From: Phyllosticta citribraziliensis
Lineage: Eukaryota
Direction: 5' to 3'
NCBI RefSeq assembly: GCF_038025025.1
Contig: NW_027117341.1
Coordinates: 2,294,001 to 2,358,000 of the forward strand
DNA: 64,000 bases
Shown here: positions 3,059-54,914 of the stretch, in pieces
Layout: each line of letters opens with the position of its first letter
Numbering within the stretch: the stretch's first letter is position 1
Made by a program: the position numbers and the translations under genes
The notes under the pieces: model-generated
What the model was told of the DNA's origin: nothing
Database searches by the model: none
Seen by the model: only the letters and a program-made list of their open reading frames with translations

Positions 3059-3633
3059 TCACTGCACGCCACACCCCGCCATCTCGCGCTGCCGCTGTCG
3101 GGTCGCCGTTGTCAGCCTCGCCGTCAGCTGGTCGACCAGGTCGCGATCCGAGGCGTGTTCGCGGCGCAGGGCGTCGAGTTGGTTGCGCAGGGTGTCGTTG
3201 TCCTGCACGAGCGACGCGATGGTGACCTAGACGTGGTGGTGGTGGCGTGTCAGGGCGTCTTTCTTCCTTTCCTTTCCTTTCCTTTCAGAACAGAAAGAAA
3301 GGTGGGAAGAGGAAAAAAAACCAATGTCCATACCGCAGAGTCCTCGCTCTCCACCCGATACTCCTCCACCCTCCGCGTCAGCTGCGTGACTGAAACCTGT
3401 TGCTCGTCGCCTCGTCGTCAGCGCCGCGTGCTACCACTCACTTGCACCTCCCAGGCCTCGTCCGCGGACACGCCGCACGCACGCACCGTCAGTTCGCCCC
3501 GTCGTCTCGCGCACTCGCCGCACGGCTCAATGCCCTGGTCCCGCCGCCGCCTGCTGCACTGGCTGCAGAGCGGTCCCGCCGTGCGCGCGTGCTGCTCTGG
3601 CTCGGCCGCCGTCTTGACAACGCGTTTGGACAT
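3059..3633 (-). CDS. Small CxxC..CxxC + coiled-coil protein, 3 exons (3633-3442, 3396-3334, 3226-3059)
   Basis: Two canonical introns (GTGAGT..CTGAC..CAG; GTATGG..CTGAC..TAG) join in frame. Heptad-rich C-terminus LVQDNDTLRNQLDALRREH. Confidence 0.7.
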
Positions 3634-3924
3634 GGATTATGGGGGAGACGTGGGGGAGAAAACAAGTGGGTTGCCGAAGATGGTTGACTGAGGTGCGCCG
3701 GTCTCGTTTGGTGCAAGCTGTACATATAAAAGCGCGTCGCTGGCTGGCTGGCTGACTGTCCCGAACTGGCGAGAAAGATGGATGAATCAATCAATCACGG
3801 TGTAAGCTGGGACATCTAAACAAGCGAGCGCTGCAGCAGTGCGGGTGCCGCATGGAGCGCAATGGAAACAACGAGATGCAACTGTAATAACCCAACATTT
3901 CATACACGCTTCTACCCCATATGC

Positions 3925-5056
3925 CTAGCTGAGCAGTACCGCGTCCAGCAGCCCGGTCATGACCTCGAGGTTGCGCGCCACGGCGGGAGCCACACTCATG
4001 GGATCGCCCGCGCGCGCCAGTGCCTGCAAGGCCGCCATCGTCGTCCAGCGCGCGCCGCCGTTGTCGTCGATGGTGCCCTCGCGCAGCCCGTCCGCCAGGC
4101 GCTGTAGCACCCTGACGTATTCCTCGAGAAACAGAAGCGCGTTCCTCAGAATCTGTATGGGCCCTTGGTCTTCCGTCAGACTGTTTGACAGCTCCCGCAT
4201 CGGGCGCAAAAGCTCCTTCGATTGGTCCCGGCGCCAAAAGCCGCCGTCCAGCTCGGGGCTCTCGATTGCCTCGATGAGAAACTCGTTCATGTGCTCAAGC
4301 TTCTCAACATTTTTCTGTTGCTCGTCAATGAAGTCCAAGGCCCAAATGGCGATGAACCGCGCTCACCTTGATGATGCGGACAATCCAGTTCAAAATCCTG
4401 AGCACCGTCTGCAGCTTTTGATCCACCCTGCCTAGCGTTTGTTGGAGATAAAGTAGGGCTGCGTCGGCGTCCACCGGCACGCGCTCGATTGCCGCCTCAA
4501 CGGTTGAAGCCGTCTCCTCGAGCAGCGCTTTTGCGGTCCTGGGGCTTTCGGCGGCGTCGTCGATGGCATTGCCCGCGCTCTCGAGGATATCAGGCGCGAA
4601 TTTGAGCAGGTAGAGTCCGTCCCGCAGCGACGTGTTCCGGGTCAGGGTACAGCTGTCTCCAATGGCGTGACTGACCGTGTGGGCGAGGTTCAAGTGTTTG
4701 TCGAGCCACCGAACCACGTCTCCCATATTGTTCAGGTGGGCCGAGGCCTGGACCGCTGCCATGTTGGGGTCGGCGTGCTTGATGATGGTTCTTGTAAAGG
4801 GAGGGGGGTGGGTCGGTCCGGCGGGAGGTACACGTTGTGGGAGGAGTGTGCGGGCGAAGAAAACAGCACCGAGAAAGAGGGCGGCGCAGGCCATGAGAGG
4901 ATGGTGGATCCAAAACAGCATCAGAGAGTTGGTGTTTCGGACGAGTTGGTCGTCGGCTACCCTGATGACCTGGCGAGCACGGTCTCGAAGTTGGTCGTCT
5001 ACATGGCTGGCTGGTGGGGAGCCATCTCTGGATGAGGCATATTCTCGATCCGCCAT
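3925..5056 (-). CDS. Single-pass membrane protein with long helical domain (family member A); intron 4366-4315
   Basis: ATG at 5056 (MADREY), TM segment LMACAALFLGAVFF. The GTGAGC..CAG intron fuses ORFs 4325.. and 3925.. in frame. Confidence 0.7.
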
Positions 5057-5559
5057 GTTGGCGGCAGCGGCGGATGATGTGTCTCGCGAAGTAGAATGGC
5101 GGTGCCAGCGTTGACCAAAGGGACGGCCAGCTTGTGGAGGACCAGGACGAGGCCAAGGAGGAGCCAGGAGCTGAAGGAGAGAGCGTGGACAAAGTCGTTG
5201 AGCGTAGCTGCGAGTGCGCGTCCGTTGCCGACGTGCGCCGCCTGGGCCAGGTCCATGTTGATGCACCGCGTCCACGCCAAGCACGCGTGTTCCAGCTGCC
5301 TGCGGCCCTGCGAGCAGCCGTAGTCGTGGTAGGCCTGGGCGCATCTTGTTATTTGCGTCAGGGCCTGCGCCGTGGCATGCATCGCGGCCGTCTGCCTGTC
5401 GCCTTGTACGGCATTGCAGCCGGCCCACACGGCCCACACGGTGCAGCACGCCCAGAAGAAGCGCACGCCCAGCTCGACGTACCGCGACAGGGTGCGCGGC
5501 AGCTGTGGGTGTGCCTCGACGTAATCGAGCAGCGAGCGCCACCACGCCGTGTTGTCCAT
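4999..5559 (-). CDS. brr6: Brr6/Brl1-family nuclear envelope protein (minimal, divergent)
   Basis: TM, then C-x3-Y-x4-C..C-x2-W-x2-C-x3-D (RCAQAYHDYGC..HACLAWTRCINMD), amphipathic ALAATLNDFVHAL, then a second TM. This matches the Brr6/Brl1 four-cysteine luminal domain. Confidence 0.8.
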   Translation of the reverse strand: MDNTAWWRSLLDYVEAHPQLPRTLSRYVELGVRFFWACCTVWAVWAGCNAVQGDRQTAAMHATAQALTQITRCAQAYHDYGCSQGRRQLEHACLAWTRCINMDLAQAAHVGNGRALAATLNDFVHALSFSSWLLLGLVLVLHKLAVPLVNAGTAILLRETHHPPLPPTWRIENMPHPEMAPHQPAM

Positions 5560-5867
5560 GTTGTTGTTTGTTGTTGTGGCTTGGAAGGGGGAGAGAGTGA
5601 AGTGGCCGGCCAAGTCTGCAGAATTCGAACAAAGGGGCCACATCTTCCCTCTTCTTCTGCTTTCGTCCAGTCGAGAACGAACAGTGATCATGTCCCCACT
5701 CTGACTCGTTGCTCTCGTCGTCCAAAAGCGTCTTTGTCTCGTCCAAGGCTCTCATTTTCCCACGTCGGTTTTGTTTTGTGCCTCAATCTTGACGTCTGCC
5801 GTCCCTCGTCATGCAATCACCTCCACTGCCGCATGTGTCGCGCAGTCATTCGTGGCCGCTGAGCGCA

Positions 5868-6651
5868 ATGGAGCGACGCTACAACCTTCGGCCGCTTGCG
5901 AATCGACGATACAGACGGGAGGACAGCAGCAACCATCAACCCCCTGACGAGCCCGACCGCGAAAAGATCTACGCCTGGAGCAGCAGCGGCTCTCAGTTTT
6001 CAGAAGAGCTTGTCGGTGTAGGCGCCTTGGGTACGAAGACTCGATCGGGTTGAAGGACGAAGGAACGCGCCTTTGGCTGACGCGTGGAATGCAGGGTATC
6101 CAGACTCGATCGAGACACGGCGACGCTTCTTCGGCCTCGGCGACAACAGAGTCGCCCTTGTCATAGGAACCATCGCCTTCATGGTCGGAGTGCTTGTCGG
6201 CAGCGTCCTGATGTGGTACCACTGCGCCACCACGACCGCGGCGAACGAGACCGCAGCAGCAGCAGCAGCAGCAGACTCACCCCAACAGCACCAACCACAA
6301 GCCCTGCTCGACCGCCTCGGTAAGGACCTGCAGATGTTGCACTGGAACTCGCTGCAGGCGCTTGGCGTGGCGTCGCCGCCGGGCGCCGCCGCCTCGGACG
6401 ACGACGTCAGCGCATGCCTTAAGACGATCGGCAAGAGCTACCGCTATTTCGGGGGCGTGTGGCATCCAGACCAATGCATATATCACAAGGCGGGCGTGCT
6501 GCACGAATGGCAGTGCAACGAGCTGTACAAGCAGGTGACGAACAAGGGGGATTCGGCGTATTACAGCTGCTTGGGCACGAAGCGACGCCTGGAAGTGTCG
6601 TCGCATGCCATGTGGCGCAGGGTGATGGAGGACGCAGCGGAGGAGGAGTGA
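5868..6651 (+). CDS. Membrane-anchored DnaJ/J-domain-like protein 1; intron 6031-6094
   Basis: A phase-1 intron GTACGA..CTGAC..CAG joins MERRYNLRP.. to ORF 6073. TM segment VALVIGTIAFMVGVLVGSVLMW. J-domain signature SLQALGV..AS..IGKSYR....WHPD..YKQV...AY. Confidence 0.75.
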
Positions 6652-13271: not shown

Positions 13272-13379
13272 GATGGTGTGTGTGTGTGGGTGGGTGTGGG
13301 GTCGTGGTCGTGGTTGTACGGGCATGCATGAAGACACCAAGACCTAATTTCCCCCTCCACACCACCTGCAAACGCGGCC

Positions 13380-13859
13380 ATGGGCGGATCGCAAACGGCC
13401 CCGGCCCCGGCCCCGGCCCCAGACTGGGACAAGATGGAGGCCTTGGTTCTACGGCTCAGGCAGATCACGAAGCTCCAAGGCCAGGACATCGATGAAATGC
13501 AAGCGGCGCTCAACGACGTGACCAACGCAAAGAACAAGTACAAGGCCGAAGCGGCGGCATTGTTGCAGCGCGAGCAGCAGCTGAGCCAGCAGGTGGCCGA
13601 AACCAACGAGGCTTACGATGAGCTGTACCGGGAATGGGACGCGTCCACCAAGGCGCATTACAACGAGGTGGCGCGTTTGCGCCAGGTCATTGTCGAACAG
13701 AGCGAAGTTATCAACCAGCGGGCCACCATGAGCCACCCACAGGCGACACCGGCGTCATCATCCCAGCCAACTACTACTACTACTACTCCTCATCCATTGT
13801 CGCCCACCATCTGCCACGGAAACCGCAGACCGTCTCGTCCGCCAGCGGCAACTGGATAG
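13380..13859 (+). CDS. Coiled-coil protein, head-to-head with 12671..13271
   Basis: 159-aa ORF with a ~100-aa continuous heptad region. Confidence 0.7.
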   Translation: MGGSQTAPAPAPAPDWDKMEALVLRLRQITKLQGQDIDEMQAALNDVTNAKNKYKAEAAALLQREQQLSQQVAETNEAYDELYREWDASTKAHYNEVARLRQVIVEQSEVINQRATMSHPQATPASSSQPTTTTTTPHPLSPTICHGNRRPSRPPAATG

Positions 13860-16052: not shown

Positions 16053-16642
16053 ATGTCATCATCTTCGTCTTCGACGCCCAGTAATGCCCCGCCCGCGCAA
16101 CAAAGTGTCCAACACGCAGCAGCCGAAGCCCAAGCTAACCATTGCGTTTGCGTCCAGGCCTCCGAATCCGCAGTCCGCAGCAGCAGCAGCAGCTGTTGAC
16201 CGAAGCGCACGCCCTGGTGGCCGTCTACAACGCGCGGCAGCCCGAAAACCGGAGCTCGCTGCAGCGCAGCGAGCAGACGGTGCTGCGCATCGCGAGCCTG
16301 CTGGCGCTGCTCGACCCGACAAACGCGCACCGGCATCCCCAGACAACCATGGAGTCGCTCGACGGGCCCATGGGCCGCAACATACGCATGCTGGGCCAGC
16401 GCGCCTCGCAGGTGCTCGCCCTGCTCGACCACATGGCCCGCGAGTCCGGAAGCGTGCGGCGGCTGCACGAACAGGAGCGGCGCCGCGCCAGCGATGACGA
16501 TGATTACAACGACTGCTGCTGCTGCTTGGTCATCCTCGTCGTCGTCGTCTTCGTCGTGCTCGTCTTGGTCGGCGTGGCTGGGACGAGGCGCCAGCAGAGC
16601 CGCGAGGCCCGCGACCCTCGCTACGCAACGCTCCTTGACTAG
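16053..16642 (+). CDS. Tail-anchored membrane protein, Tlg1/syntaxin-6-like Qc-SNARE (tentative); intron 16081-16157
   Basis: Intron GTAATG..GCTAAC..CAG is in frame. Helical region LDGPMGRNIRMLGQRA..LLDHM followed by YNDCCCC-LVILVVVVFVVLVLV, like the Cys-rich juxtamembrane end of Tlg1. Confidence 0.5.
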
Positions 16643-25098: not shown

Positions 25099-25416
25099 TC
25101 ACGCCGTCTATTGGATAGAAGGGTTGGTTCTCTTCCATCATTCTGTCAACAGTTCTCTCCCGGGAGCATCTTATGTCATGTAGCCCATCAGCAAGAGATA
25201 CTTAATTCTCCACTCTCCCCCACTGCCCGGGTTTCTTTGCACGTATCCTTGGTCGCTTCTAGTGCCATCTGGACATTGCGTCTCATTTTCTCCATTCATT
25301 CATTACTTTCCTCATCATTATACCTATCAAAGTCGTCGCAGCACGTCCCAAATCCAAAGCCCGACCAGTGAGTGAGTACATATAGTAGCGAGCCATTCAT
25401 TGCCTTCGCCGTCTTC

Positions 25417-29961: not shown

Positions 29962-30252
29962 ATGCTACCCAGACGTAGTAGTCCTGTTTGGAAATACACG
30001 GGAAATAAGAACGGGGAGAAAAGCGTCGGAAAAAGGAGAAACAAAGGCAAAAAAATCCAAAGTAGTACTGTTTGGAAATACAAGGGAAATAAGAAAGGGG
30101 AGAAAAAAGTCGGAAAAAGGAGAAACAAGGGCAAAAGAAAACGTAGTACTGTTTAAAAATACAAGGGAAATAAGAAAGGGAAGAAAAGTGTTAGAAAAAA
30201 GAGAAAGAAAGACGGAAAAAAAAACCCTCAAAAAGATTTCTTTGGCGAATGA
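29962..30252 (+). pseudogene. Lys/Arg-rich repeat peptide (3 x 27-28 aa, STVWKYKGNKKGEKKVGKRRNKGK)
   Basis: Repeat periods of 84 and 81 bp keep the frame. The third copy has TAA where copies 1-2 have TGG. Confidence 0.5.
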
Positions 30253-30419
30253 AGAACAGAGCACGGCAGACAGCAACAACAACAACGACAAGACCAGGCA
30301 AACACCATGAGGCGCAAGATTAGCCTCCTCAATCACCTCCGACCAGGCCATCCTTTGGATTGGACCTGTGCTGTGCACCTGGCTGGGGACAACCAATGCT
30401 CCCGAATCTATTCCTCCTC

Positions 30420-31430
30420 TTATGATGACTCGGGCCGCCTGCGCTCTTTCTCCCACTCGGGCCCAAGACCACCCTTCAGAAGCGAATCGCCCATGAGCCA
30501 GGCCAAGTGCCTGTTCCTGCGCACCGAGCGCTCTACCTCTTGGTCGATTTTGCGACGCTCCTCTTCCCAATCAAAAAAGTCTTGGTCACCAAAGCCAAAC
30601 CAGCCACGAGAGCTTCTTCGCAGCTGGCGGAAACAATCAGCAACCGTGTGGAATGGCTTGCTGAGCCTTTCGGCCATGAAGATGAGCTTGAAGTAGTCGT
30701 GGTCATCCATGTCCATGGCTTCATCCGGTGAAACTGGCCCATCATCCATCATGTCATCAACATCGAGGTCCTCGCCGTCGGCTAGAACGTCCAGATAGCG
30801 GCTCTTTTGCTCGTTCTGCAGGCATTGGAACCTCGCCGCCGTGTATGCATCGTCAAGTACACCCGCCACAATCAGCAGGTGGCGCTCAGAGAGATTGAAG
30901 ACGGCGCGGAGTCCCGGGGTGGATTGCGGGCCGCCCGGTGCCGTGCTTGTCGGGGGCTTTGCAACGCGATCCGGATGCCACAAGGCACGCACACGTCGAT
31001 AGCCTTTTCGAACAGCGCGGAGGCAGGCCCGGGACTCGGTGCTGTTCGGGGCGCGAGCGTTCTGCCAAGAGTCGGTCAAGTTGACTGGTGTGCCAAACAA
31101 GGTCCACGGATGCATCTGAGCCCCGTCGAGTCGCGGGCAGAGCCGAGGCAGTTGGAACATCCAGTCGAAGGCATCGGCTTGTGGAAGCATGGGAGGGGCA
31201 GGACAGACGAGTGTTGGCGGCGGCGGCGGCGGCGGCGGGGCGGGCGACGTGGCCAAGAAGTGGGCGAGCAGCGATACAAGCACGACCGAGGCGACTGTCG
31301 CGTATCCTGGAATGGGAAAGGGTCGGCGTAGAGAGTCGATCAAGGCGGAGAGCAGCGGCCAAGCTGGACGGGAGGCATTGCTGCCGACGCGGGCAGGGGG
31401 GCGTGCAGGGCGACGCTCACGCAAGGACAT
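30420..31430 (-). CDS. Membrane-anchored DnaJ/J-domain-like protein 2
   Basis: 336-aa ORF with TM segment ATVASVVLVSLLAHFLA and ACLRAVRKGYRRVRALWHPD..LDDAY. Confidence 0.75.
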   Translation of the reverse strand: MSLRERRPARPPARVGSNASRPAWPLLSALIDSLRRPFPIPGYATVASVVLVSLLAHFLATSPAPPPPPPPPTLVCPAPPMLPQADAFDWMFQLPRLCPRLDGAQMHPWTLFGTPVNLTDSWQNARAPNSTESRACLRAVRKGYRRVRALWHPDRVAKPPTSTAPGGPQSTPGLRAVFNLSERHLLIVAGVLDDAYTAARFQCLQNEQKSRYLDVLADGEDLDVDDMMDDGPVSPDEAMDMDDHDYFKLIFMAERLSKPFHTVADCFRQLRRSSRGWFGFGDQDFFDWEEERRKIDQEVERSVRRNRHLAWLMGDSLLKGGLGPEWEKERRRPESS

Positions 31431-31990
31431 GGTGTTGAGAATGGAGCGAAGGACGAGACACGAACAGAGGACGAGGACGAGGATGAGGACGAGGACGAGG
31501 ATGAGGACGAGGGAGGGCGAGTAGAGAGAGAGGTTTCTTTGTCTTGGTGTCCGTTTCCGGCGGCTGGGCCGGCGGCTGGCCGTCGCCCTGCAGATGGAGA
31601 TGGCGCCATGTCTCGGCTGTCTGTGTGTCTGTCTGTTGATGGCCGTCGGTCGTTCGTTTGCTTCAGTGGGGTGCAGTGGGTGGTGTGGTGTACAAGCAGT
31701 GAGTGAGTGGTTGGTTAAGGGACGGAGAAGGAGATAAGGTGGAGGGAGTACATGTCCGCTTTAGGCTCACCGCCGACGTCAACCTCGCCTCTGAAACTGA
31801 TAAAGGTACTAAAGGCAATGCAATCTAGCTATTAGATTGGACCAGACCAGTCTCGTGCTTTAGGGCCTGTCCTCAAGTTGCCGACTTGGTTGCATTTACT
31901 ATGCATCCAACTACCACGATTTGTCGCCATTCCTGATCCACTCTTCTAGCGCCGCCAAAGGTGGAATCCATTGCCCATGGTTGCGGCAAA

Positions 31991-32286
31991 ATGGCAGTGT
32001 CTGGGGCGAAGGGAGTCGTGGAGAGCTGGATGCTGTTGATCGAGCCACAACATGCTGGAGTTGTGCAGTGGACCAATGCCGCGGGGCGCAAGACGGCTGT
32101 GTGGCCGGCGTGGACCAAGTCATGGCTCCGTCAGGACTGGAGTGGCAACGTTGACGAACCGTCCGAAGCACGCAAGGCGACGATTGCGGCGTGGTATGCG
32201 CAGCCCATGCGATACGCTGAGGGCACCATGTTCGCCGACTTGGCCAGGGCCATGAACGGCGACGACCTTGGGCGACCAAGCCGCAC

Positions 32287-32319
<33 letters not shown>

Positions 32320-32626
32320 TCTTTCGACGTCGCCGCCGCCGCCGCCGCCGCCACCACGTCAAAGCAGCGCCAACAACACGGAGCGTCACTTCAGGGGCAG
32401 ACTTGCCCGGAACGATTTTGCATCGCCCCTAGAGCGCATGGGCTACGAGCGCTTGGTGCGGGAGCGCATCTCGTCCGAGTTGGCGAACCTGGTCCCCCGC
32501 CTGGCCAGGCGGGAGACTGTCGGTGGTGGAGGAGGAGGAGCAGCGCAGCGGCGCGAACAGACCCTGGAGGACGAAATCACCGCGTCGATTCGCAACATCA
32601 TGCGTGTCTTGGTCATGGAGCTGTGA
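31991..32626 (+). CDS. Hypothetical protein with poly-Q/poly-P linker and helical C-terminus
   Basis: Intact ATG ORF, convergent with CenH3. No family recognised. Confidence 0.6.
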
Positions 32627-32865
32627 AGTGCGTGCGTTGTGGTCTTGCGGAAGCGCGCGTGTGGGTGTGAGATGTGGCATCAGACTGTGGCATCTTTGCA
32701 TTTCTTATTTCTTTCAAATTGTGTGTTTCGGCTGCATGATGAGAATCAAAAACCAAGACTGCGGGAGTTGTTAGCAGAGCGCAGGTAGTTTCGTCGTCGT
32801 GTCTTAAGTACCAAGCAAGCCCTAGCAAAAGTCCGAATATCCTCAATCACTCATGTCGTGTCCCA

Positions 32866-33297
32866 TCAGAAATCGCCACCAAAGCCACCCGAAGCCCGAA
32901 TGCGTCGTGCCAGCTGGATATCCGCTTGCTTGATGGTCACGCGCTTGGCGTGCATGGCGCAAAGATTGGCGTCTTCGAAGAGCGACACAGCACAGGCCTC
33001 AGCGACCTCTTGGAGAGCCATGAGCGCCGATGACTGCCAACGGAGCGGAGCTGAGCCGGGCCTGGTCATGGAGGCAGTGATTTCGCGGACCTGGTGTGGA
33101 ACAGGGGGTCAGCGGCGGCACATGTGGAGGCCAGATGCACGTACAAGTCTCGCGAAAGGCGCCTTGCACACGAGGAGCTCGGTGGAGCTTTGGTAGCGTC
33201 GAATCTCGCGCAGTGCGAGTGCGCCTGGCTTGTACCTGCGGCGCTGCTTTGGCTGGGGTTGCGTTTGCTGTCTTGTTGGCTTCGACTTGGGCGCCAT
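32866..33297 (-). CDS. cenH3: Centromeric histone H3 variant (CenH3/Cse4/CENP-A), 125 aa; intron 33144-33091
   Basis: Spliced fold [83 protein letters not shown]. Shows the CenH3 diagnostics: A at H3-Q68, W at F84, non-T at T107, longer loop 1, non-canonical tail, GG-containing C-end. Confidence 0.9.
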
Positions 33298-33661
33298 TTG
33301 AGGTGCGATGGGGGTTCGACTCAACTCCAACTGATGGCGGAGAAGAGGATGGAGAGACCCGGCGCCGAGCAGAGAGAAGGCGAAGGCATTGCGGATGGAT
33401 GAGGCTGGGGTGAGCCTGGTGCCGAACTGATGTCGTTGGAGGTGAATGACTGAGGGAGACGGTGTGCCCGGTCAGCGCCCGAGGCGGAGGCGGGGGCGGA
33501 GCGGGGCGGACGTATATAGATGCCCCGCAACACCATTCTGCCATCACGACACCGCCACTGACACCGACACCGATACACACAAAAACAAACACACCTCCCT
33601 TGTCCTGTCTCCTCCTCTCCCCCTCACCAACGACACGAGACCTCCCTCCTCCACCGCCGCC
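33298..33661. promoter_or_regulatory. Probable bidirectional promoter between CenH3 and Scm3
   Basis: 364 bp between divergent ATGs; TATA-like TATATA at ~33513. Confidence 0.55.
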
Positions 33662-34345
33662 ATGCACGATGACGAAGACGACGACGACGACGACGACGAA
33701 AAAAGCGAGGATGACGTCTCACTCCACACAAAGCTTGCCCAGACCCAAGGACTGCTTGGCGCTCGCATCCGGGCCATATGCAACAAGTACGAGCGCGAGG
33801 CCATGCACGCACAATACGAAGCAGACGAAATTGACCTGGAAACATTGGAGGTTGTGACGGACAATGGCCATCTTCGCGGCATACAGGATTGGGACGACCG
33901 GGTCGACGACATGGAGGGTCAGGGGGAAGGGGAAGAGGAAGAGGAGCCGCAACGCGAAGAGGCGGCCCAAAAAACAGCATCCCCCGTCGCCGCCGTCGCA
34001 CAACGAGACGAGCCAACGCGACGCGGGTGGACTGCCGAAGAGAAGGCGCTGGTCGTAGACTTGCGCGACGAGCAAAAGCTGCCGTTCCTAGCCATTGCTG
34101 CACGGTTTCCCGGGCGGTCGGTCGCAACCGTCATCGCAAAGTACCACCACCTGAAGAAGCGAGGCGGCAGCGGCGGCGGCACAAGGATGTACAGGGTCTG
34201 GACTACTGAGGAAAAGTCGCTGCTCTGGAATCTCCGCAGTCAAGGCTGCGAATTCAAAGCAATTGCCGAGCGCCTGGGAAGAGCGGTGCCACAGGTCGTC
34301 ACTCGCTACAGGTCGCTGAAGAGGGAACATTCAGTCCGTGGGTGA
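33662..34345 (+). CDS. scm3: Scm3/HJURP CenH3 chaperone with two C-terminal Myb/SANT repeats
   Basis: LLGARIRAICNKYE..ADEIDLETLEVVTDNGHLRGI is the Scm3 signature (I..KY..DEIDL.T..V.DNGHLR). WTAEEK..IAARFPGRS..KY and WTTEEK..IAERLGR..RY are Myb repeats. A GTGAGT at 34342 could extend the gene. Confidence 0.9.
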   Translation: MHDDEDDDDDDDEKSEDDVSLHTKLAQTQGLLGARIRAICNKYEREAMHAQYEADEIDLETLEVVTDNGHLRGIQDWDDRVDDMEGQGEGEEEEEPQREEAAQKTASPVAAVAQRDEPTRRGWTAEEKALVVDLRDEQKLPFLAIAARFPGRSVATVIAKYHHLKKRGGSGGGTRMYRVWTTEEKSLLWNLRSQGCEFKAIAERLGRAVPQVVTRYRSLKREHSVRG

Positions 34346-34789
34346 GTCTGTCTCCCTGAGGTGCCCGCTCTCAGAGGCCTACGGATTACCATTGGCCGCT
34401 GGGCGTCATGCTGAACGACGGGAGGACGTTTACCTGTACCCACCTCACCCAAGAAACCCGGGATTGTTCTCGTCGATGGCGAGAAGGGCGCTGTGTAGTT
34501 GTTAACAATCAAGATGGCGTTGCAAATTCCAATGCGTAGACCTTCGTATCTTGTACCTATGCATTGCTTGCGTGCCGTTGTACGGTAGGTAGACGCGCCA
34601 TCACGTGCGCGCGCGGTTTGCTTGCCTTCCTGGTTGGCTAGGCATCAAGATGACGTCATCATTCTGTCCGTCACCTGCCCGGCCCCTGCCCTCAGGTCTC
34701 GCCCGTCCTCCCGTCGGCTGCACCCGGTGGCAGTTGCCGTCCGGCCAAGTCCTGTCGCCTCTCCCCGAGCCGTCGCTCCATGTCCACCA

Positions 34790-34892
34790 CGGCACCCTCC
34801 CTCTCTCCATGGCACCCTCTCTCTACGGCACCCTCTCTCCACCACCCTCTCTCCACCACCCTCTCTCCACCACCCTCTCTCCACCACCCTCC
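34790..34892. repeat. 14-bp tandem repeat (CCACCACCCTCTCT)n
   Basis: Directly visible. Confidence 0.85.
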
Positions 34893-35242
34893 ATCATTGC
34901 AATACGGCCGAGCTCCCACTTTCTCTCCCCAGACAGCTGCTGTGCACTGCCCTGGACCGACAAAGCAGAAGCACGCGCATCGGAGCACGAAGCCTGTGCC
35001 CCGACCATGGAGGCCAAGGGCCAGCCAGCCACTAGCATCTGGTGAGTTGAACCATCACACGTCGTGAGAATGACACCAAACTGACCCATTTCAGCCGACG
35101 AGGGACGACCCACACTCATGCCCTGCCCCCAAACTTCCACCACCTCACTCACCTGCGGTGCTGATGACGGCAATCCATACACCGGGGCTCAGAGCGCGAG
35201 AAAGGCAGCCGAGGCAGCAAACCACAGAAGTCGCGTCGTCAA

Positions 35243-35610
35243 GACAAGAGTACCAATACCACGTCCACGCCGCGCGCCCAGACATCCACCACGTCTCCTG
35301 CCGATGACGAATACCTTGGAAATACGAGCGAAGAGCCCAGCGCCCCAAAATTGCTGCGCCAGAGCGCCAGTCGCTCGTTGCTGAATCGCCAGGGGCGAGA
35401 AGAGCAGGCGAACAAGCAAACCGCAGCAGTCTCGTCGGGACAAGAGTACCAACACCACGTCCACGCTGCGCGCCCAGACATCCACCACATCTCCTGCCAG
35501 GGGCGAGAAGAGCAGGCGAACAAGCAAACCGCAGCAGTCTCGTCGGGATAAGAGTACCAATACCACGTCCATGCCGCGCGCCCAGACATCCACCACATCT
35601 CCTGCCGATG
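35243..35610. repeat. 108-bp tandem duplication plus a partial third copy
   Basis: AGGGGCGAGAAGAGCAGG.. at 35391 and 35499; shared AAGAGTACCAAYACCACGTCCA block three times. Confidence 0.85.
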
Positions 35611-36039
35611 AAGGTGATCCATATACTGGGGAGACACTCTGCGGCTTCTCCTCCCATTATGAGAGCAGAGACCCACCACAACAACACCAGAACCAAAATC
35701 AACACCCACTAGACCGGCAACACAACGCCACCTCAACAACACCCGGCCCTCGCCTCTCCAACGTCGACCCCCACCGGTTGTCCCTGACTACGCTCCTTTC
35801 CCTCCTTACCCGCCCTGGCACAACGCCAACCGCGAGACCGCTTCCGTCAACACTACTCCTGCACCCAAAAGGCACCACTCCAGCTTTACCCTCAATGCGG
35901 CGGGCGAGATTCAATTCGATTCACCTTCTGTACGCAGCGCGCTCAGCCCATTTCGTCCGCCACGGCCGCTGGCAGCCTTGACGCGCTGCGCACGCTCGGC
36001 GCCTCGCGCAACGCCTCGCCATCGCCGCAGCCGCCATCG

Positions 36040-36590
36040 CAGCGCCCGTCAATCTTGACATCTTCGAGACCAGCAGCCTCGACGCACTGCGCACGCTCAG
36101 CAGAGAATCCGCTCGCCGCTCACTCCCGGTAGTTACCTGCCAGTATCGTCAGCGCCCGTCAATCTTGACATCTTCAAGACCAGCAGCCTCGACGCACTGT
36201 GCACGCTCAGCAGAGAATCCGCTCGCCGCTCACTCCCAGTAGTTACCTGCCAGCATCGTCAGCGCCCGTCAATCTTGAAATCTTCGAGACCAGCAGCCTC
36301 GACGCACTGCGCACGTTCGGCAGAGAATCCGCTCGCCGCTCACTGCCGGTAGTTACCTGCCAGCATCGTCAGCGCCCGTCAATCTTGACATCTTCAAGGC
36401 CAGCAGCCTCGACGCACTGTGCACGCTCGTCCAAAGACTCCCAAGGCATACGCTGTGACTACACCCCCCAAAGTTCATCGTGGCCAGCGTCAGAGAATCT
36501 GCTCGCCACTCGCTTCCAGTATATTTGCCGGTAGTTCCCAGCCGGCATCATCAGCGCCCGTCAATCTTGACGTCTTCAAGACTAGCTTCA
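36040..36590. repeat. 110-bp tandem repeat, ~4.5 copies
   Basis: AGCGCCCGTCAATCTTGA at 36041, 36151, 36261, 36371 and 36553. Confidence 0.95.
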
Positions 36591-36659
36591 CGCGAATGAG
36601 AAAGAGACCCTTTAATTCCTTCAATGAGGAGGACCAGTCCCTGAGCAAGTATTATAAAA

Positions 36660-37365
36660 AAGTTTGAACCGACGCGGGCGCGACCAGACCGGACATACTT
36701 CATGGTACTGCTAGGGTGCGCAATGTGATGCCCCTTCCTCACGCAACACCATATACGGATTCCGGCACTACCATCAAGCCCTCTGCGAACCTCGAGCATT
36801 CGTCGCCAAGGACAAGATCTCCGCGAACGACAAGATCTCCGCGAACCTCGACCAGATCTCCGCGAACCTCAAGCATTCGTCGCCAAGGACCAGTCGCCGA
36901 GCAAGTATTTCAAAAAAGTTCGAACCGACGCGGGCGCGACCAGACCGGACACACTTCAAGGCCCTTCGCGAACCTTGAGCATTCGTCGCCAAAGACAAGA
37001 TCTCCACGAACCTCGAGCATTCGTCCCCGAGGACAAGATCTCCGCGAACCTTGAGCATTCGTCACGGACAAGATCTCGGCGAGCCGCACAATCTCAGACC
37101 CAGAGCCCTCCGTGAACCTTGAGCATTCGTCGCCGAGGACAGATCTCCGCGAACCTCGACCATTCGTCCCCAAGGACAAGATCTCGGCGAGCCGCACAAT
37201 CTCAGATCCAAAGCCCTCCGCGCACCTCGAGCATTCGTCGCCGAGGACGGATCTCCGCGAACCTCAAGCATTCGTCCCCAAGGACAGATCTCTGCAAACC
37301 TCGAGCATTCGTCCCCAAGGACAGATCTCCGCGAACCTCGAACATTCATCGCCAAGGACAAGATC
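36660..37365. repeat. 37/38-bp minisatellite (TCTCCGCGAACCTCGAGCATTCGTCGCCAAGGACAAGA), ~11 copies with higher-order duplications
   Basis: Directly visible; the unit length is not a multiple of 3. Confidence 0.9.
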
Positions 37366-39738
37366 GCACCTGCGGACGTTGGAGCCAGACTTTGCATTCA
37401 GGTGGGGATTGCGGTGAGACCGTCCTATTGAACGCAACTACACGGCCACGCGCAAGCGGTGTTTGATAGCAGCCAGCCAGCCAGCCAGCCACAATAGCTT
37501 TGTATTTACACATTTTCCTAATAGCCTATTTGTTACGCTGCCGCTGACGCGCAGAGCGCATTTTGAACCATGACGCGCGCAAGGTGTCCACATACATGTC
37601 GTGATGGCGACCGGGAACGGACACTTTGGCCATGAAACGCGCGACCGGGGATGCGCAACGGACCGCCGCCAGAAAGTGAGCGACGATAGTCCATCCCAAT
37701 GCTCCTCCCCCGTTGGCTTGGTCACATCACCAGTCACGTCACCTCCTTCCTCCTTCTGCTCCTCTCACCACCTGGACTCCGCCCTATGTCTCGCCATCTT
37801 TTCTTCTCTCAACCTCAACCTCAACCTCACCCTCACCCTCACCCTCGCGGGCCGTCACGCTTCCGCCAGCCTCGCTCGCTTGCTCTTCGTCCCTCCATCG
37901 CTGACTTGTGAGTACACCTGTGTTCCTCCATGGCCAGGCAGCCACCCTCCCTCTGTTGCATCATCGCGCTGACCGAAGCAGACGAGACGACGAGCAGCAT
38001 TGGAAGACCTCGCCCTCGCCCTCACCCTCGCCCTCACCCTCGCCCTCGCCTTCATCCGCTCTCGTCAGCCGAGTGCTCTGTGCGACCGGTGACGCATTGG
38101 AAGACGGTTGAACAATACCGCCTGTGGTAGAGCGACTCTGGTACTCAATGCTCATTAGCGGGGTGTGTTGTCAGGGCAGTATGCTTCCCCACTCTTCTTC
38201 TCGTTCCAAGCCACTATTCTGACCAACTGCACAGGCTGCGGGTGTGTTTTCGTGGTCCGGGCCGGCCCAAGGCTGCTTTGGCACCACTCTGACTTCGCCT
38301 TGGACCTTGACTCGGCTTCGGCTTGGATCTTGGATCTTGTTGCCATCAACGACACATGCCCCATTCAGCGGCTTGATTGCCTTGAGTTTTCCGCTTATGA
38401 AGCTGACTGACTGTGCGCAAACAGACTCCGCCCAACGCTTCTGCTTGGATGACCGCCGTCCTGGACCCTTGTTTGTCCAAATCATCCTCAACCCGGACCG
38501 ACTTTACGCATACCCCGCCCATCTCTCGCCGTCATCGTCGGTCGGACACAATGCCCCTTTGGTTCTGCAATGTTGGTTTGCCCAGCTCATTCTCGCCGTG
38601 TTCTCAAAACTGACGGTACGCAGGTCTCTCGCCGTCGCCGTCACCGTCGGTCAGACACAATGCCCTTCTAGATCTAGATCGCACCACACACTCGAGGCCC
38701 TTCCCGGTCCGCCGACTACCGTGGACACAACCAACACCACCTCACTCACCTCAGTACCTTGCAACTATCGCACCCTTTCCATCCCACCTGATGATCGCCT
38801 ATCCCGGACACTCCAGCTCGCTTGCTCCCGCGCTCGCTCGCTCACACCCTTCACTGCGCAGACTGCTTCTCCAACCGACCGACCGACCGACCACCTCTCT
38901 TGCACAGCCCGACCAACTCACGATTGAAGGAACAATTTCATAGTTGGGGCACATGGCCCATGGTAAACCCTGCGGGCAGGCTGTAGTGTGGCGCTCTCTA
39001 TAGAAGCGTGCTCGCCAAATGTAGAAATCTTAAACTTGAAAGGCAAGACAGCAACTCCATTCGTGCCAAACAACTAGAAGCCGACATGTTGCCTTAGGTT
39101 CCCTTGCGCGCCGCACTCCTATCCACTCAACCAGAGCCCTTTATAAAATCTAGCAGACTCTGACAGGCCGTGGCTCTAGGAAGAGGAACCACAAGGCTAC
39201 GGCAGCAGGTGGAAGCGACCAAAGCCAAAAGGACTGCGTAATACCCCGGGTCAAGCTCTGCGTCACACGATGGGGCGCCGATTTTTGATATTCCCTGGGT
39301 GAAGAACAATTAAATCTACCACAATCCAGTTGCAGGCAGGAAGGAAAGGCTACAAGAGGTAGGAGGTAGTATAGACCAGAATGACGGTGTTTACGCCTTT
39401 TCCAGGGTCCGATCCATACAGGCAGGCCTCCCCGATCCTATGCGCACTTCGTCGTCGCTTTTTCTGATTACGACGACCCGAGCTTCCAGCTTTGTGGGTG
39501 CTTCCGCGGCTTAGACAGCCGGGGCTAGACAGTGGTGGTGTTCTTATTGGCGGGGTAGAGCAAACAGCGGCGGTGCGCTTAGTGGTGTAGTAAGTACTGT
39601 CTCGGGAAGAGTAGGATTATTCACAGTCAGGGGGAGAAACCCACAGAGATAGAAAAGAACGACAAGGCCCTCTGTGCCCCATAATCATCTCCATCCTTTC
39701 CCTCTCCTCCATTACCATCCTCTTCGCCTTCTCTAGTC

Positions 39739-40272
39739 ATGACTTCTCAAACGCCACCAAGTCCGTCGGAAAATCCCATCAAAAGCCAGAAGCAACATCC
39801 GGCCATCCAAAAAAAAGGAGACACCAGATCCGCAGAAAAGCCAGCTTTCGAGATGGAGTCTGACAACCTAGGTGCCGCTACTCCCGTCCACAATCCCACC
39901 ACGCGCACCCGGCAACAACAATCTACTCCTCCACAAACGCCCGCTCCTCCTTCTCCTCCTTCGCCTCCGTCTCCTCCTTCTCCACGTCTACGGCGCAAAC
40001 GGCGGCTCTCCGATTTAGACCTCTCTCCAACAGATGGAGTGGGCCGCAACGTGCGACGACGCCTTGTTTGGGACGCCGAGGGCGGAAAAGGCGGCGGCGC
40101 TGAGGGCGACGAACCAGTGGACACCCTTGCTCAGTGGGAGGAGGAGGAGCTATTGCCACATGCCGATTCCCCACCGAGCCCGAGCCCGAGCCCAAGACCA
40201 GCACGCACAGTTGGCCGCCGCAGCATCGCTCAGTCTAGGATGCGATTGGCTCTGCGCCAGAAGGACCGCTGA
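39739..40272 (+). CDS. Disordered protein with 14 S/T-P sites, RRL motifs and NLS (Sic1/Rum1-like architecture)
   Basis: 177-aa ATG ORF containing TPPQTP, SPRLRRKRRL and VRRRLVW. Confidence 0.65.
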   Translation: MTSQTPPSPSENPIKSQKQHPAIQKKGDTRSAEKPAFEMESDNLGAATPVHNPTTRTRQQQSTPPQTPAPPSPPSPPSPPSPRLRRKRRLSDLDLSPTDGVGRNVRRRLVWDAEGGKGGGAEGDEPVDTLAQWEEEELLPHADSPPSPSPSPRPARTVGRRSIAQSRMRLALRQKDR

Positions 40273-40744
40273 AGAGGGATAATGGATGGCACAGACATGG
40301 AAGGCATGGAGGCAGCGGCGGATGGGTGACATGGCGGACAAATTGCAGGCAGGAAGAAAGGCAGGTGGAGGAGAATGGAATGAAATCAACGACAAGTTGG
40401 CGGGCAAGGGGCGGTTTGCTTTTTATTGTTTCATGCATTTCTCTTTTTTCATCGTCATCATGGTTGCGAATCAATCACAGCATAGTGGCAGTGAAAGGGT
40501 ATACCGCGCAAGGGTGCCGACCATTTCACTAAATGGCTTCTACCCGCCTCCCCCTAAGATTCGTTCCTCGCCTCACTCAGATAAGTCTTAGACTGGCTGA
40601 TCCGAGCACCATCTATAGTATGGAGGCCGCAGCCGTGCATTTGTCTTGGCCACCCTCCCCTGAGGCATAGAGTCCTATGAGAAGAGCAACTAGGTAGCAT
40701 GTAGGCAGGTCTTCACGAGCCTACCAGCTCCTCCCGATTCCAAA

Positions 40745-41193
40745 ATGTCAACAGAAATGCCACGCGATGCAGTGCCCGCAGGGAAGAAGCGCCGCTACCG
40801 TAGGTCAGCACCTCTAGCTATCAACAGTGCCGCTTGTTGAAATGTCTACAGGATCCTCTAGTCTAAAAGACAGAAGAACAAGAAGAAGAAGAAAGCAGCC
40901 CCGCCCCACCCCGCCTCGCCTGCTCGGATCCGAATGACCCTTGACGCCAGAGACACTCAAGACAGTCCGACCTTAGGACCGCAGACGACATTGATGAGGC
41001 GGCCGAAGCCATGTTGTTGGCGTGGTCGCAGGTGGTGCGGCTTTGCGGCGGCGGCGATGCCAACATGTGAGACCAGTCGCAGCTCATTAACAAGACGCTC
41101 GGAGACCAGGCTGCGCATCTTCGACGGTGGGTGGCGCGCTGCCAGGAGCAACATTCATCGGCCAAGGGGCGTAGAGAAGAGCAGCGGGTCTAG
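40745..41193 (+). pseudogene. Disrupted paralog of 15134..15776
   Basis: DAVPAGKKRRY followed by an intron-like segment. AMLLAWSQVVRLCG..LGDQAAHLRRW aligns with LMREAWGHVAGFCG..LDDVAADIAVW. Stops at 40864, 40942 and 41068. Confidence 0.7.
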
Positions 41194-41425
41194 CTTGCAT
41201 CGCCTGCCTAGCTCGGTTGGTTTTGGTGGACTGTGAATTCATCGAAACCACGTTTTATCGACAGCCTCTTTCTAGCAATGAGAAGACTGATTACATACAG
41301 CAAACATGTCAAAAAAGAAAAACAGAAAGGAAAGAGGAGACGATGAACAATACCTGCCAGTAAAGTCAGCCCAAAAACCTCTTTCAAGATGGCTTACAGC
41401 AGCTGCTGCTGCTCAACCCTGGTTC

Positions 41426-41731
41426 TCAAAGTGATTTCATGCGCGTCTGCAGCCCGCGCACTGTCATCGAGGCGCTGCGGAGGACGTGGGTGGCGCGGTT
41501 GGGAAAGGCGTCGAGGTTGCGGCAGCGTTCCCGTCGCCTGCGAAGCCTTGGGAACGCTGCTCTTCTGTCTTCGTTGGGGTAGTCGAAAGGGCTCGCCAGG
41601 TGCACGGCCCTAGGGTACGATGCGGGTCCGGCGTTGTCCATGTTGTAGATGGGGATCCTTGGAGCGGCGGCGGCGGCGGCGGTTTTGGGTCGTTGAGGGC
41701 CCTGCAGTGTCTCCTTGTCAGCTTTGTACAT
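41426..41731 (-). CDS. Small basic hypothetical protein (~101 aa)
   Basis: ATG ORF MYKADKE..; no family recognised. Confidence 0.4.
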   Translation of the reverse strand: MYKADKETLQGPQRPKTAAAAAAPRIPIYNMDNAGPASYPRAVHLASPFDYPNEDRRAAFPRLRRRRERCRNLDAFPNRATHVLRSASMTVRGLQTRMKSL

Positions 41732-42867
41732 GATGGCATTTGGTGTGATGGGATGCGAGTGAGCTGACCGTGGCTGAGCCGTGGTTTTGTCGAGACATGA
41801 CGGGCTGGAAATTGAACGACTTGAGCTAGCTTGAGCTAGAACAAGCAGGCTGGCAGTTTTTTTGCGCGTGGGGGGACGGTGGATGTACGGCGCGAGGGGG
41901 AGACGCAAGAGCGAGTGCGTGAGCGCAACGCAATGGACCAGAGGACGGCGGTGGGGAGAAGCGCGGAAGTGATGTGGAAGTTGCTGGCAGCGGCGGTGGT
42001 GGTGGTGGTGGAGAGGGATGTACAGGCGTCTTGCCAAAAGTGAGGGCGGAGCCGACGAGGCAGAATTCAGATGGCGCAGGAAATGTTCGAGGCCACTGCC
42101 ACGTCTCGCCCGGCGCTTGATCGCTTTGTCCTACGTCCTTGGTGTCTTGTCCTACCTTTTCGCAACGGGTTTTGTCGCTCTTCTCAGTACTGCCCTCTCG
42201 CCATTGCCAGTGGCCCGATTGTGCAATGACTCGGCGGCTTGCCCATTTGAAGAGCGTTCAGATGGCGAGAACATGGCGGGTGGTCATAGAAGGGGGGTGG
42301 CGTGGAAGAACTGGCGTGTCGATCTTTGGGAACGTTGCTGCTGCTGTTGCTGCTGTCAGTGCTGAGAGAGTGTCAAGAGAGAGCCAAGTAACTGAGGGAG
42401 CAAAAGCAAACTGAAGAGGGAAGCGTGAGATGGCCATATGTCAGGTGGTGCGTGTCTTGAGATGTAGTGAGATGGTGTTGAATGCCCCCGCCATTAGATG
42501 ATGATGACGGCACTGCAGTGTGCAGTGCCTAGACTCGGCTGTGCCGCTCCGACCTGAGGCCCGCTTACGAGGTCATGTGCCGGTGATCACGTGCTGACGC
42601 GCAGTCGTGTTCCGTTCCTTACCGTAGGTCGGTTGGTTGTGTTGTGATGCTTACTTACACGCCCGGCAGGTACCGTACCGTCGCATCGTACCAATTTGAC
42701 CTCAGCCTCGACCTCGACCTCCATGGCGACTCTTTACCTCGCCTTCGCCCTCGACTCACAGCCTCACCCTCGCCCTCGACGACCACGACCACGATCAGAC
42801 CGCCGCCGACCCTGCATCGCCATCATCAGCGCGCACTCCCGCCTCCTCTCCTCGGCCCACCTGCGCC

Positions 42868-44725
42868 ATGGTCCGTCCGGCCAGGGAGCCCGTCATACAG
42901 TCTGATCTCATGACCCCCGTTACAAGATCCATTTCCGGGCGCTCTGTCGCCCCGAACAGCAACGAAGCCGCCGACGATGAAGACCACTCCTCCAACAGCA
43001 GCGATGGTGACTCAGGGTCTGAGAGCAACGACGGCCAGAACGGCCCGCCCTCCCGCTTTGTAGGAACGACGGAACAATTGGCCGCGTCCAGATGGAAGCT
43101 CATGGGCGAACACGCCTACAATTCACGCACATTTGTGACCCAGCTTAGAGAGTGGGCCCATCAAGGAACCTGGACTTTGGATGAGCTGGTGGAGCAGATG
43201 CAAGCGGTCCGCTGGGGAGAGAACTCAGAGCAGCAGACACTGAAGCGCGTCACCAAGAAACACATGTACACCGTCGGCGTTCTGTATGAGTGCCTGGCGC
43301 GTGCACACAGCAGGGTCAAGAGTTGTCTGTGAGGAACCTGGCCCCGAAGCTGAAGCGCAAGTCAACTGGTGACACCGATGACTCGGACGAGCCTGAGCAC
43401 CATCCGACCAAGCGACGAAGAAGGGCGGAGAAGAAGCAGACACGGGATGCGAAGAAGAGATCGGATACACGGAGCACCCAGTATGCGCCTGAGTCACCAC
43501 GGACAACCCGATCATCCCCATCTGTTGAACATGGACGTGGTGGAGACGCCGATCTCGACGATATGCCACAGTCCAGCAGGCCATCTCCGTTGTCGTCTCT
43601 GTCGCCTTCAGCGCGGCACGCCTCTCCATCGCCTCCGCGGGCGCCGTGGACGCCTCAATGGCATGAGTTCAACTTGGATCTAGAAAATTCAGATGTACGG
43701 CAACACGGCCAGTATGACGACAATGATGGTGATATCTTGGACGCACTATCAGATTCGGATTTACAACAACACGGCCAGGACGACGACAACGATGTTGATG
43801 TCTCGAGAGCACTATCAGATTCTGAAATTGAGGCGCTCTTGAGGATCTTTCTGCCATGAAGTTGCCAGCTGTGGCCCGCTGCCACTTGGGATGCTGCTAT
43901 CCAGGATCCAAACTCGACGCACTTGGCCGTGGCGGTCCGTCCGGCTGGCGCCACCAGAGGTTGGGCCATCTTGGTGTTCGACCTCTTGAACAGCACATGC
44001 ACCAACCTGAGCCCTCGGGCTGACCAAACTCCACTAATGATGATCTATGAAAGACTCCTACCTTTGCCCTTGCAGCGCAAACTCGGTGCAGAGACAGTCA
44101 TACTAGACGGCATCCAACACGCCCAAGCCCTCGACAGTGGCACCTACGCACTAGTTGGAGCCCTCTTTTATCTCTACAGCACTGTGCAGCCCAAGGAGGT
44201 GGAAGGCAATCTATGGAGGTACATGGTTCCAGCAACCTTGGCTGAGTATAACAACCCGGGCGTCGACAATGTTGGACTGCCTCCTAAGGTCTTAGACGAC
44301 GCCACTATCACCTATAGAGAGGATCTCATCAATACCGACCCGGCCGCATTGGACTACTAAAGCCTAGGGTGCCTTAGTCATAATATTTAGATACACGCGG
44401 CTAACCTTTAAGGAAAGCTATAGGTCCTTAATAATAGTATAAATCTAGACACGCTATAAGCCGTATTTAGAGTAGTAAAGTAGGACTTAACTAAGCATCA
44501 TAATATATTAGAGAAGGAAAGTAAATAATACTAGAAGTAGATAGCATCTATTAAGATAGTAAAGGAGTTTATAGGATAATATAATAAGTATAGAGACTTT
44601 AGTAGTACTATTAGTAAGTAGGAAATAATAGTAGCCTAGCTAGTATCTTCTCTTAAAGGTACCTACTACTAGCTAGATAATACTATTAATACCCTAAGAG
44701 CTACTTAGGCTAGATAGAGGGTAGT
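42868..44725 (+). pseudogene. Degenerate Ulp1/C48-peptidase-like gene with coiled-coil tail, progressively RIP-mutated
   Basis: ORFs 43290 and 43923 share a frame, split by TGA at 43857; frameshift near 43325. Motifs LSDSEIEALL, GWAILVFD and QHAQALDSGTYAL echo WLND.II, HW.L.V.D and QQ.N..DCG. After 44358 the frame continues with TAA/TAG where Gln codons fit. Confidence 0.5.
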
Positions 44726-48475: not shown

Positions 48476-48515
<40 letters not shown>

Positions 48516-54900: not shown

Positions 54901-54914
54901 ATTAGAGAGGATAT

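Follow-up and report, generated by a model that had tools for sequence, protein, structure and literature searches.

A second centromeric histone H3 gene arranged head to head with a short Scm3-like gene in Phyllosticta citribraziliensis

A CenH3 gene and an Scm3-like gene in one transcribed locus

The window analyzed here is a 64,000-nucleotide stretch of DNA whose source is printed by the protein look-ups as the Dothideomycete Phyllosticta citribraziliensis. Our subject is a pair of adjacent, divergently oriented genes within it: one encodes a paralogue of CenH3, the variant of histone H3 that marks centromeres, and the other a condensed relative of the chaperone Scm3, referred to below as mini-Scm3. 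The features of the pair are as follows.

32866..33297, minus strand: CenH3 paralogue, coding sequence for 125 amino acids (aa), from the Pfam Histone match and spliced RNA contigs
33145-33297, minus strand: CenH3 exon 1 (gene model)
32866-33090, minus strand: CenH3 exon 2, stop codon included (gene model)
33091-33144, minus strand: CenH3 intron, 54 nt, GTACGT..CAG, skipped by RNA contigs of runs X1 and X2
32759-32811, minus strand: second CenH3 intron, 53 nt, in the 3' untranslated region (3'UTR), skipped in one RNA contig
33298..33661, no strand: intergenic region between CenH3 and mini-Scm3, 364 bp from ATG to ATG (from the sequence), a putative bidirectional promoter
33662..34345, plus strand: mini-Scm3 gene, single exon, 227 aa, an exact match to the annotated protein P0003

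All 520 stop-to-stop open reading frames (ORFs) of at least 55 aa between 1 and 44.8 kb were scanned against Pfam at E≤0.01, and the curated cut-offs were reached by three genes only. CenH3 matched the Histone family in two adjacent exon ORFs (74.8 and 44.3 bits; 32869-33471, minus strand), the mini-Scm3 ORF (33446-34342, plus strand) matched Scm3 at 38.1 bits and Myb at 30.5 and 28.7 bits, and a Brr6-like ORF (5002-5751, minus strand) matched Brr6_like_C_C at 66.8 bits. A first-pass annotation, made from the letters of the sequence, had named genes for CenH3, Scm3, and Brr6 here and described a block of few recognizable genes with no metabolic or housekeeping gene. The scan bears out both statements: three genes gave Pfam matches among the 520 ORFs, and no metabolic or housekeeping domain was found in them.

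The translation of the CenH3 gene model contains the annotated protein P0004 exactly, and it matched H3 and Schizosaccharomyces pombe Cnp1 chains as an H3-type fold with E of ~1e-34. The hallmarks of CenH3 proteins are reportedly, after Malik and Henikoff, a loop 1 longer than that of H3, a Trp in the place of H3 Phe84, and the absence of H3 Gln68. Aligned with H3 and S. pombe Cnp1, the paralogue has four additional residues in loop 1; it reads LRWQS where H3 reads LRFQS, with Trp in place of Phe, and REITASM where H3 reads REIAQDF, with the alpha-1 Gln missing. Its N-terminal tail is unrelated to that of H3, and the ARTKQTARK motif is absent. The H3-like fold, the lengthened loop 1, and LRWQS are features that it has in common with canonical fungal CenH3 proteins (Cse4/Cnp1/hH3v; P0411, P0406, P0377, and P0417). 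The RefSeq model of the same gene, P0418, carries a different 30-aa N-terminus (33298-33430), and the window's minus strand yielded no single ORF with this start. Since RNA contigs run unbroken through the MAPKSK start of the paralogue, the P0418 model may be mis-spliced.

Expression, which the first-pass annotation had proposed to check, was assessed from contigs of runs X1 and X2, which come from two studies of organism A. The RNA type of these runs is guessed on the record; we treated their contigs as RNA-derived because they skip 52-74-nt stretches with GT..AG or CT..AC ends. RNA contigs of both studies cover CenH3 and mini-Scm3; stretches that no contig covered were given no weight as evidence. 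The CenH3 intron at 33091-33144 is skipped, with CT..AC ends on the plus strand, in contigs from both studies, and the transcript extends over ~32439-33419. Contigs without joints cover mini-Scm3 at 33564-34531 (X2) and 33709-34536 (X1). Both genes are transcribed, and the CenH3 intron is correctly spliced. The intergenic region contains TATATAG at 33514-33520; the RNA contig ends, which are not mapped transcription starts, lie at 33403 and 33419 on the CenH3 side and at 33564 on the Scm3 side.

Two annotated records of the pair agree at 100% identity, and neither gene is disrupted. In the related organism B, one contig of 3,385 nt spans 32394-34523 and covers both genes; over 1,741 bases, it shows 64 letters that differ from the window and 97 letters in gaps. 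The head-to-head layout, with 364 bp between the start codons, is kept there. As a separate observation on organism B, the 735 changes between run X4 and window positions 24400-44399 comprised 392 of the C>T plus G>A type and 163 of the A>G plus T>C type. This direction bias may reflect a trend in the relative that lowers GC and resembles repeat-induced point mutation (RIP), or it may come from repeats at other loci.

A diverged second CenH3 and a short Scm3-like family

The protein search with P0004 was made against targets of 57-182 aa; 2,639 of 2,645 candidates lay at E≤0.001, and the best 120 of these 2,639 were examined. Among them were two further Phyllosticta matches, both at 66% identity; their clusters contain proteins of 155-158 aa, which come from five to six species of the genus. 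The canonical CenH3 of P. citribraziliensis itself is represented by P0411, on a 1,917,384-bp contig, and P0413, on a 2,100,120-bp contig, which carry RefSeq or GenBank accessions of this species. P0411 and P0418, both RefSeq entries of P. citribraziliensis, can be read as belonging to one assembly. Since P. citribraziliensis also has this canonical gene, we call the window CenH3 a paralogue; by a count of annotated proteins, it stands as an additional copy beside the canonical CenH3 on another megabase-scale contig. The first-pass annotation had suggested a search for a separate canonical cenH3, and P0411 and P0413 answer it. In fungi, CenH3 and its chaperone are normally single-copy.

The canonical Phyllosticta proteins have a common N-terminal tail and are near-identical across the genus in our alignment. 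Over the histone fold, canonical CenH3 proteins agree at 96-101 of 101 positions within Phyllosticta and at 80-82 of 101 between Phyllosticta and Hortaea, Venturia, or Eremomyces, whereas the paralogue agrees with the canonical copy of its own species at 69 of 101 (68%). Unlike the canonical proteins, it has a tail of ~21 aa before the alpha-N helix (versus ~50 aa), does not begin with the canonical MPPKP..GGR..TGRKS start, and has a C-terminus different from the canonical RGAWGD... Of 68 columns that are invariant in 11 other CenH3s, the paralogue keeps 60 and alters 8.

In a tree of 49 rows, the canonical Phyllosticta CenH3s formed a clade with support of 100/99. The end branch of the paralogue measured 0.92, versus a median of 0.19, and its position was unplaced. 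Forcing it into the canonical Phyllosticta clade gave a p value of 0.19 in the approximately unbiased (AU) test, so that this placement was not rejected for the long branch. A lineage-specific duplication with acceleration is allowed by the tree, yet unproven. A giant-virus or other horizontal origin of the pair was considered and set aside: the splice signals look fungal, GC content matches that of the neighbours, and the Myb repeats are of Scm3 type, with the histone remaining unplaced on the tree.

In P0003, the mini-Scm3 protein, the Scm3 domain occupies residues 27-76 (PF10384; 38.7 bits, cut-off 24.3; covering positions 7-53 of the 53 in the profile) and is followed by an acidic linker and two Scm3-type Myb repeats at residues ~120-167 and 178-221. 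An exhaustive HMMER search with P0003 returned 462 proteins at E≤0.001; the query alone lay below 1e-30, and the next best proteins were 39-40% identical. Among 42 of these matches that were scanned with Pfam, 23 were proteins of 746-2006 aa with an N-terminal Scm3 domain at 66-85 bits; most of the 23 add a GATA finger and several Myb repeats, and many add Forkhead. Those that were named are from Dothideomycetes (Elasticomyces, Hortaea, Meristemomyces, Baudoinia, and Vermiconidia). Mini-Scm3 resembles long proteins such as Elasticomyces P0127, Hortaea P0132, and Baudoinia P0197 in the order of its parts, an N-terminal Scm3 domain and then Scm3-type Myb repeats (LR-E-L-F-IA-R-PGR). In the Scm3 helix, mini-Scm3 shares 21 of 44 residues with P0127, whose repeated Scm3-type Myb units are also matched by the two Myb repeats of the short protein. 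Unlike mini-Scm3, which consists of Scm3 and two Myb repeats without the long multidomain architecture of the ascomycete Scm3s compared, the long proteins mostly carry the GATA finger, several carry Forkhead, and they have more Myb repeats. Judged by this comparison, P0003 is a condensed Scm3 relative and not a random Myb factor.

Short collinear relatives of P0003, at 35-37% identity, were found in P. citricarpa (P0125/P0273 and P0131/P0274) and P. paracitricarpa (P0136), and P0135 is a further short Scm3-like protein of P. citribraziliensis itself, on another contig. The Scm3 scores of these relatives are ~27 bits or nil (none for P0131), and that of P0003 is the best within the family. Proteins with a short Scm3-like part and two Myb repeats measure 174-316 aa and have so far been seen in Phyllosticta species only, on contigs of 165-568 kb. 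The proposal that the window holds an extra Scm3 therefore stands in part: there is a condensed 227-aa form, with the further short gene for P0135. A first word search with Scm3 returned only P0003 itself, its acidic low-complexity words having probably saturated the 8,000 candidates scored; a metagenome scan with the alignment of short Scm3-like proteins gave 147 pattern matches, of which one was confirmed, a 1,107-nt contig whose lack of flank makes it uninformative about recurrence of the pairing; and the best Atlas score for mini-Scm3 was 0.80, a lead only.

A proposed deposition route and the readings that compete with it

That the window carries a second CenH3 with a linked mini-Scm3, both expressed and on a contig of core size, we regard as very probable. 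We lean, with some reserve, toward explaining the locus as a whole as a linked duplicate module of CenH3 and mini-Scm3 on a chromosome-scale contig, with a deposition route of its own. The Scm3 domain, the head-to-head arrangement, and the joint retention of the two genes lead us to infer that mini-Scm3 loads the CenH3 paralogue. In the proposed route, the shared 364-bp intergenic region would coexpress histone and chaperone, as in divergent H3-H4 pairs; mini-Scm3 would bind a dimer of the paralogue and H4 through its Scm3 helix; and its Myb repeats would guide deposition. The outcome would be a specialized second route of CenH3 deposition, comparable to the Cid and CAL1 paralogues of insects and serving one life stage or some of the loci. 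The chaperone-client relation between mini-Scm3 and the paralogue is the tentative part of this explanation, and we rate it as somewhat short of probable. A complex prediction for the paralogue fold and the N-terminus of mini-Scm3, run with no H4 chain, returned a score of 0.01 and a mark of 0.34, and weighs neither way.

The fungal core histone pairs H3-H4 and H2A-H2B are divergently transcribed, and the arrangement here is like theirs in that two partners of a putative complex stand head to head on a short shared intergenic region. It is unlike them in that the partners are a histone variant and a putative chaperone, not two histones. Retained CenH3 paralogues are central to ideas of centromere conflict and germline specialization in plants and insects. 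Mosquitoes, in which Cid and CAL1 paralogues are coretained, provide the closest precedent. In insects (mosquitoes and Drosophila), an additional centromeric histone is described as persisting next to the ancestral one, and a duplicate of the deposition chaperone as coretained with it over 60-150 million years; the insect paralogues differ strongly in their N-terminal tails, and specialization is the favoured explanation (Kursel, Welsh & Malik 2020, PMC7306699). The Phyllosticta pair resembles this case in that an extra centromeric histone is kept along with an extra chaperone copy and the N-terminal tails are strongly diverged. It differs in that the host is a fungus, the chaperone is of Scm3 type and condensed to 227 aa, the duplicates are linked head to head, and the pair is so far seen in one species and one related organism. 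A literature search found no fungal case of CenH3/CENP-A/Cse4 paralogues among the titles and abstracts listed. If the second deposition system is real, it would be the first fungal instance of a centromeric histone and its chaperone that are both duplicated and physically linked. P. citribraziliensis would then be a compact test system, a culturable haploid fungus, described solely as an endophyte, with the linked pair on one short promoter region; it could be used to ask if a histone and its chaperone are able to diverge together until they form a deposition route of their own.

Several observations weigh against a working second deposition route. The N-terminal tail common to the six aligned canonical Phyllosticta CenH3s is missing from the paralogue, which, tail-less as it is, may fail to recruit the kinetochore. 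The Scm3 score of P0003 is about half that of the long forms, and no long Scm3 from Phyllosticta was among the 13 long matches looked up (seven clusters named). The depth of the RNA contigs cannot rank the expression of the two genes. In five other Phyllosticta species, the search of annotated proteins (57-182 aa; the best 120 of 2,639 matches) showed no orthologue of the paralogue, which is therefore either young or often lost.

Some of the same observations would be expected if the two genes were decaying duplicates: a recent duplication would have produced a copy of CenH3 and a truncated piece of Scm3, both incidentally transcribed and drifting toward pseudogenes. The long CenH3 branch, the truncated tail together with the eight changes at otherwise invariant positions, the halved Scm3 score, and the lack of an annotated orthologue in the five sister species all fit such a course. 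However, neither ORF is disrupted, the two annotated records are identical for both, the CenH3 intron is precisely removed in two studies, 60 of the 68 invariant histone-fold columns are kept, and the pair is retained together in organism B. We consider decay to be quite improbable.

A different alternative is that the pair has been neofunctionalized outside the centromere, or that the two genes are mere neighbours: the H3 variant would mark other chromatin, such as RIPped AT-rich DNA, and the Myb protein would be a transcription or DNA-binding factor and not the chaperone of the variant. The absence of the canonical tail would suit such a role, the locus lies ~10 kb from a RIPped block, and the other short Scm3-like/Myb genes of Phyllosticta score only marginally for Scm3 (27 bits) or, in P0131, not at all. 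Within that family, however, P0003 has the best Scm3 domain, which reaches 38.7 bits and shares 21 of 44 residues with a long Scm3, and the 364-bp head-to-head arrangement is kept in organism B; we give a noncentromeric role a low probability. Returning to the deposition route, a stronger version of it would be a second, orthogonal system of centromeric chromatin, in which a private CenH3 is deposited by a dedicated mini-Scm3 in one life stage or at some of the sites; meiosis, particular chromosomes, and RIPped AT-rich DNA are examples. Such a system could be a product of centromere conflict; we think it unlikely.

Chromosomal setting and neighbouring genes

The remaining features of the window are listed below.

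1601-2977, strand not given: P0419, annotated protein of 458 aa, low-complexity, no Pfam matches
4999..5643, minus strand: Brr6-like gene, 214 aa (Atlas record, starts MWPLCS), PF10104 at 66.8 bits, E 2.2e-18, cut-off 25
6022..6648, plus strand: ORF with a hydrophobic segment and a WHPD motif (at 6463), GC content at third codon positions (GC3) 0.75
30420..31430, minus strand: P0420, 336 aa, N-terminal hydrophobic segment, family unassigned; exact NCBI protein, singleton 90% cluster
31991..32626, plus strand: P0421, 211-aa orphan with poly-Q and poly-P runs; exact NCBI protein, singleton cluster
34799..37365, no strand: tandem repeats with units of 14, 108, 110, and 37 nt (~2.6 kb), directly downstream of mini-Scm3
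37177..41700, plus strand: stretch under one RNA contig, with GT..AG introns at 37908-37981, 38179-38234, and 38572-38623
44400..64000, no strand: RIPped AT-rich block, GC 24.6%, continuing past the window end

GC content is 53-63% per 2-kb bin from 1 to ~44 kb, the gene block, and 22-29% per 2-kb bin from there to 64 kb, with the drop sited at ~44,300-44,500. In the AT-rich block the RIP indices are 1.74 for TpA/ApT and 0.04 for (CpA+TpG)/(ApC+GpT), compared with 0.55 and 1.26 in the gene block. The values for the AT-rich block are the signature of very heavy RIP and bear out the earlier remark that the genes adjoin a RIPped block. Pfam gave no match above cut-off for the AT-rich block (65 ORFs, each 40 aa or longer), and Rfam and tRNA scans of the entire window gave no matches. 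Within the gene block, coding periodicity (GC by codon position) is absent at ~14-16, 19.3-23, 26.3-27.7, 28-30.3, and 34.2-39.8 kb.

The first-pass annotation had taken the region for an accessory (B-like) chromosome, or else a giant element, equipped with its own toolkit of centromere, nuclear-envelope, and cell-cycle genes for segregation, drive, or transfer. The prediction at the core of this proposal, that separate canonical copies exist, does hold for CenH3. Several facts speak for this proposal: the CenH3 and Scm3-like genes are extra copies, known domains are few (three Pfam-positive genes in 44 kb), the region borders a RIPped block, P0419, P0420, and P0421 are singleton 90% clusters, and the contig that holds P0004 and P0003 in one assembly measures merely 253,010 bp. 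In another assembly, however, P0418 (the same CenH3) and the exact window proteins P0419, P0420, and P0421 lie on a contig of 2,499,641 bp. Phyllosticta genomes are given as 29-32 Mb in a paper that describes P. citribraziliensis as known solely as a citrus endophyte (PMC9073689). The contig thus amounts to ~8% of the genome and is not a small separate chromosome. The CenH3/Scm3 locus was seen in both annotated assemblies, in the two RNA studies, and in organism B, with no case of absence in this small sample of few isolates.

As regards a giant mobile element, the Pfam scans of the window (520 and 65 ORFs) gave no mobile-element domain of the transposase, recombinase, or reverse transcriptase type. 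Starship-type elements carry a captain tyrosine recombinase (DUF3435) at one end; no Pfam match to such a captain lies within the window, past which a larger element could extend. The toolkit itself shrinks to one histone-chaperone pair, as the Brr6 gene is of an ordinary class, the J-protein claim comes down to a motif, and the SNARE and Ulp1 claims lie below the Pfam cut-offs. We therefore regard an accessory chromosome or giant element as very unlikely. The region is better described as part of a chromosome-scale contig, transcribed, rich in orphan genes, and bordering a RIPped block; apart from the histone-chaperone pair, the supposed toolkit comes down to an ordinary Brr6 gene along with orphan genes that are unrelated.

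The Atlas cluster nearest to the Brr6-like protein is a "brr6 family" of 212-aa ascomycete proteins with 120 members (score 0.94), and the nearest clusters are 96-99% PF10104; by these matches, the protein looks like the ordinary short Brr6 class. Two membrane J-proteins had also been claimed. What stands is a short helix-II/HPD-like motif in two genes, P0420 and the ORF at 6022-6648, which share K-x-YR-x4-WHPD, an HPD tripeptide after a basic helix II as in a J-domain. The motif reads RACLRAVRKGYRRVRALWHPDR in P0420 (residues 134-156, 30962-31030) and ACLKTIGKSYRYFGGVWHPDQ in the other ORF (6388-6477), and the two proteins align by pairwise BLASTP with E of 2e-5 over 30 aa. What does not stand is a DnaJ profile match: PF00226 was found in none of the 520 ORFs at E≤0.01 and in neither motif-bearing protein at E≤5, a threshold at which these two proteins gave no Pfam match of any kind. 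The closest J-domain chain in the PDB matched the motif with E of 0.39 over 23 residues. The WHPD motif may be a degenerate or minimal J-like module in two otherwise unrelated membrane-type orphans. One RNA contig covers 29621-32250, P0420 included.

The supposed SNARE-like protein (ORF 16139-16639) scored 11.1 bits against a cut-off of 26.8 (E of 0.4) and is not upheld, nor is the Ulp1-like relic, for which no Peptidase_C48 match was found among the ORFs of at least 55 aa. Coiled coils had been claimed as well; the ORF at 13332-13856 does give matches of coiled-coil type, all of them below threshold (CENPH at 18.8 bits against a cut-off of 27). P0421 is convergent with CenH3, its 3' end overlapping the CenH3 3'UTR, and it has no Pfam match above cut-off. 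The P0419 ORF has a clear codon-position GC bias in its first ~400 bases only, and this gene model may be spurious.

The tandem repeats at 34799-37365 have no codon periodicity. Their plus strand is rich in C, with a GC skew from -0.18 to -0.22 over 34-40 kb, and RNA contigs lie over them, many with two possible placements. Beyond them, the spliced stretch at 37177-41700 has a longest ORF of 195 aa (39685-40269). It may represent a long noncoding RNA, a long leader, or merged overlapping transcripts, one RNA contig across several genes being no proof of a single transcript. At the end of this stretch, a minus-strand gene is suggested by a CT..AC joint at 41701-41767. A tandem repeat with A-rich units of 84 nt (three copies, 29977-30224) lies between P0420 and its upstream neighbour, within an island of 38-47% GC.

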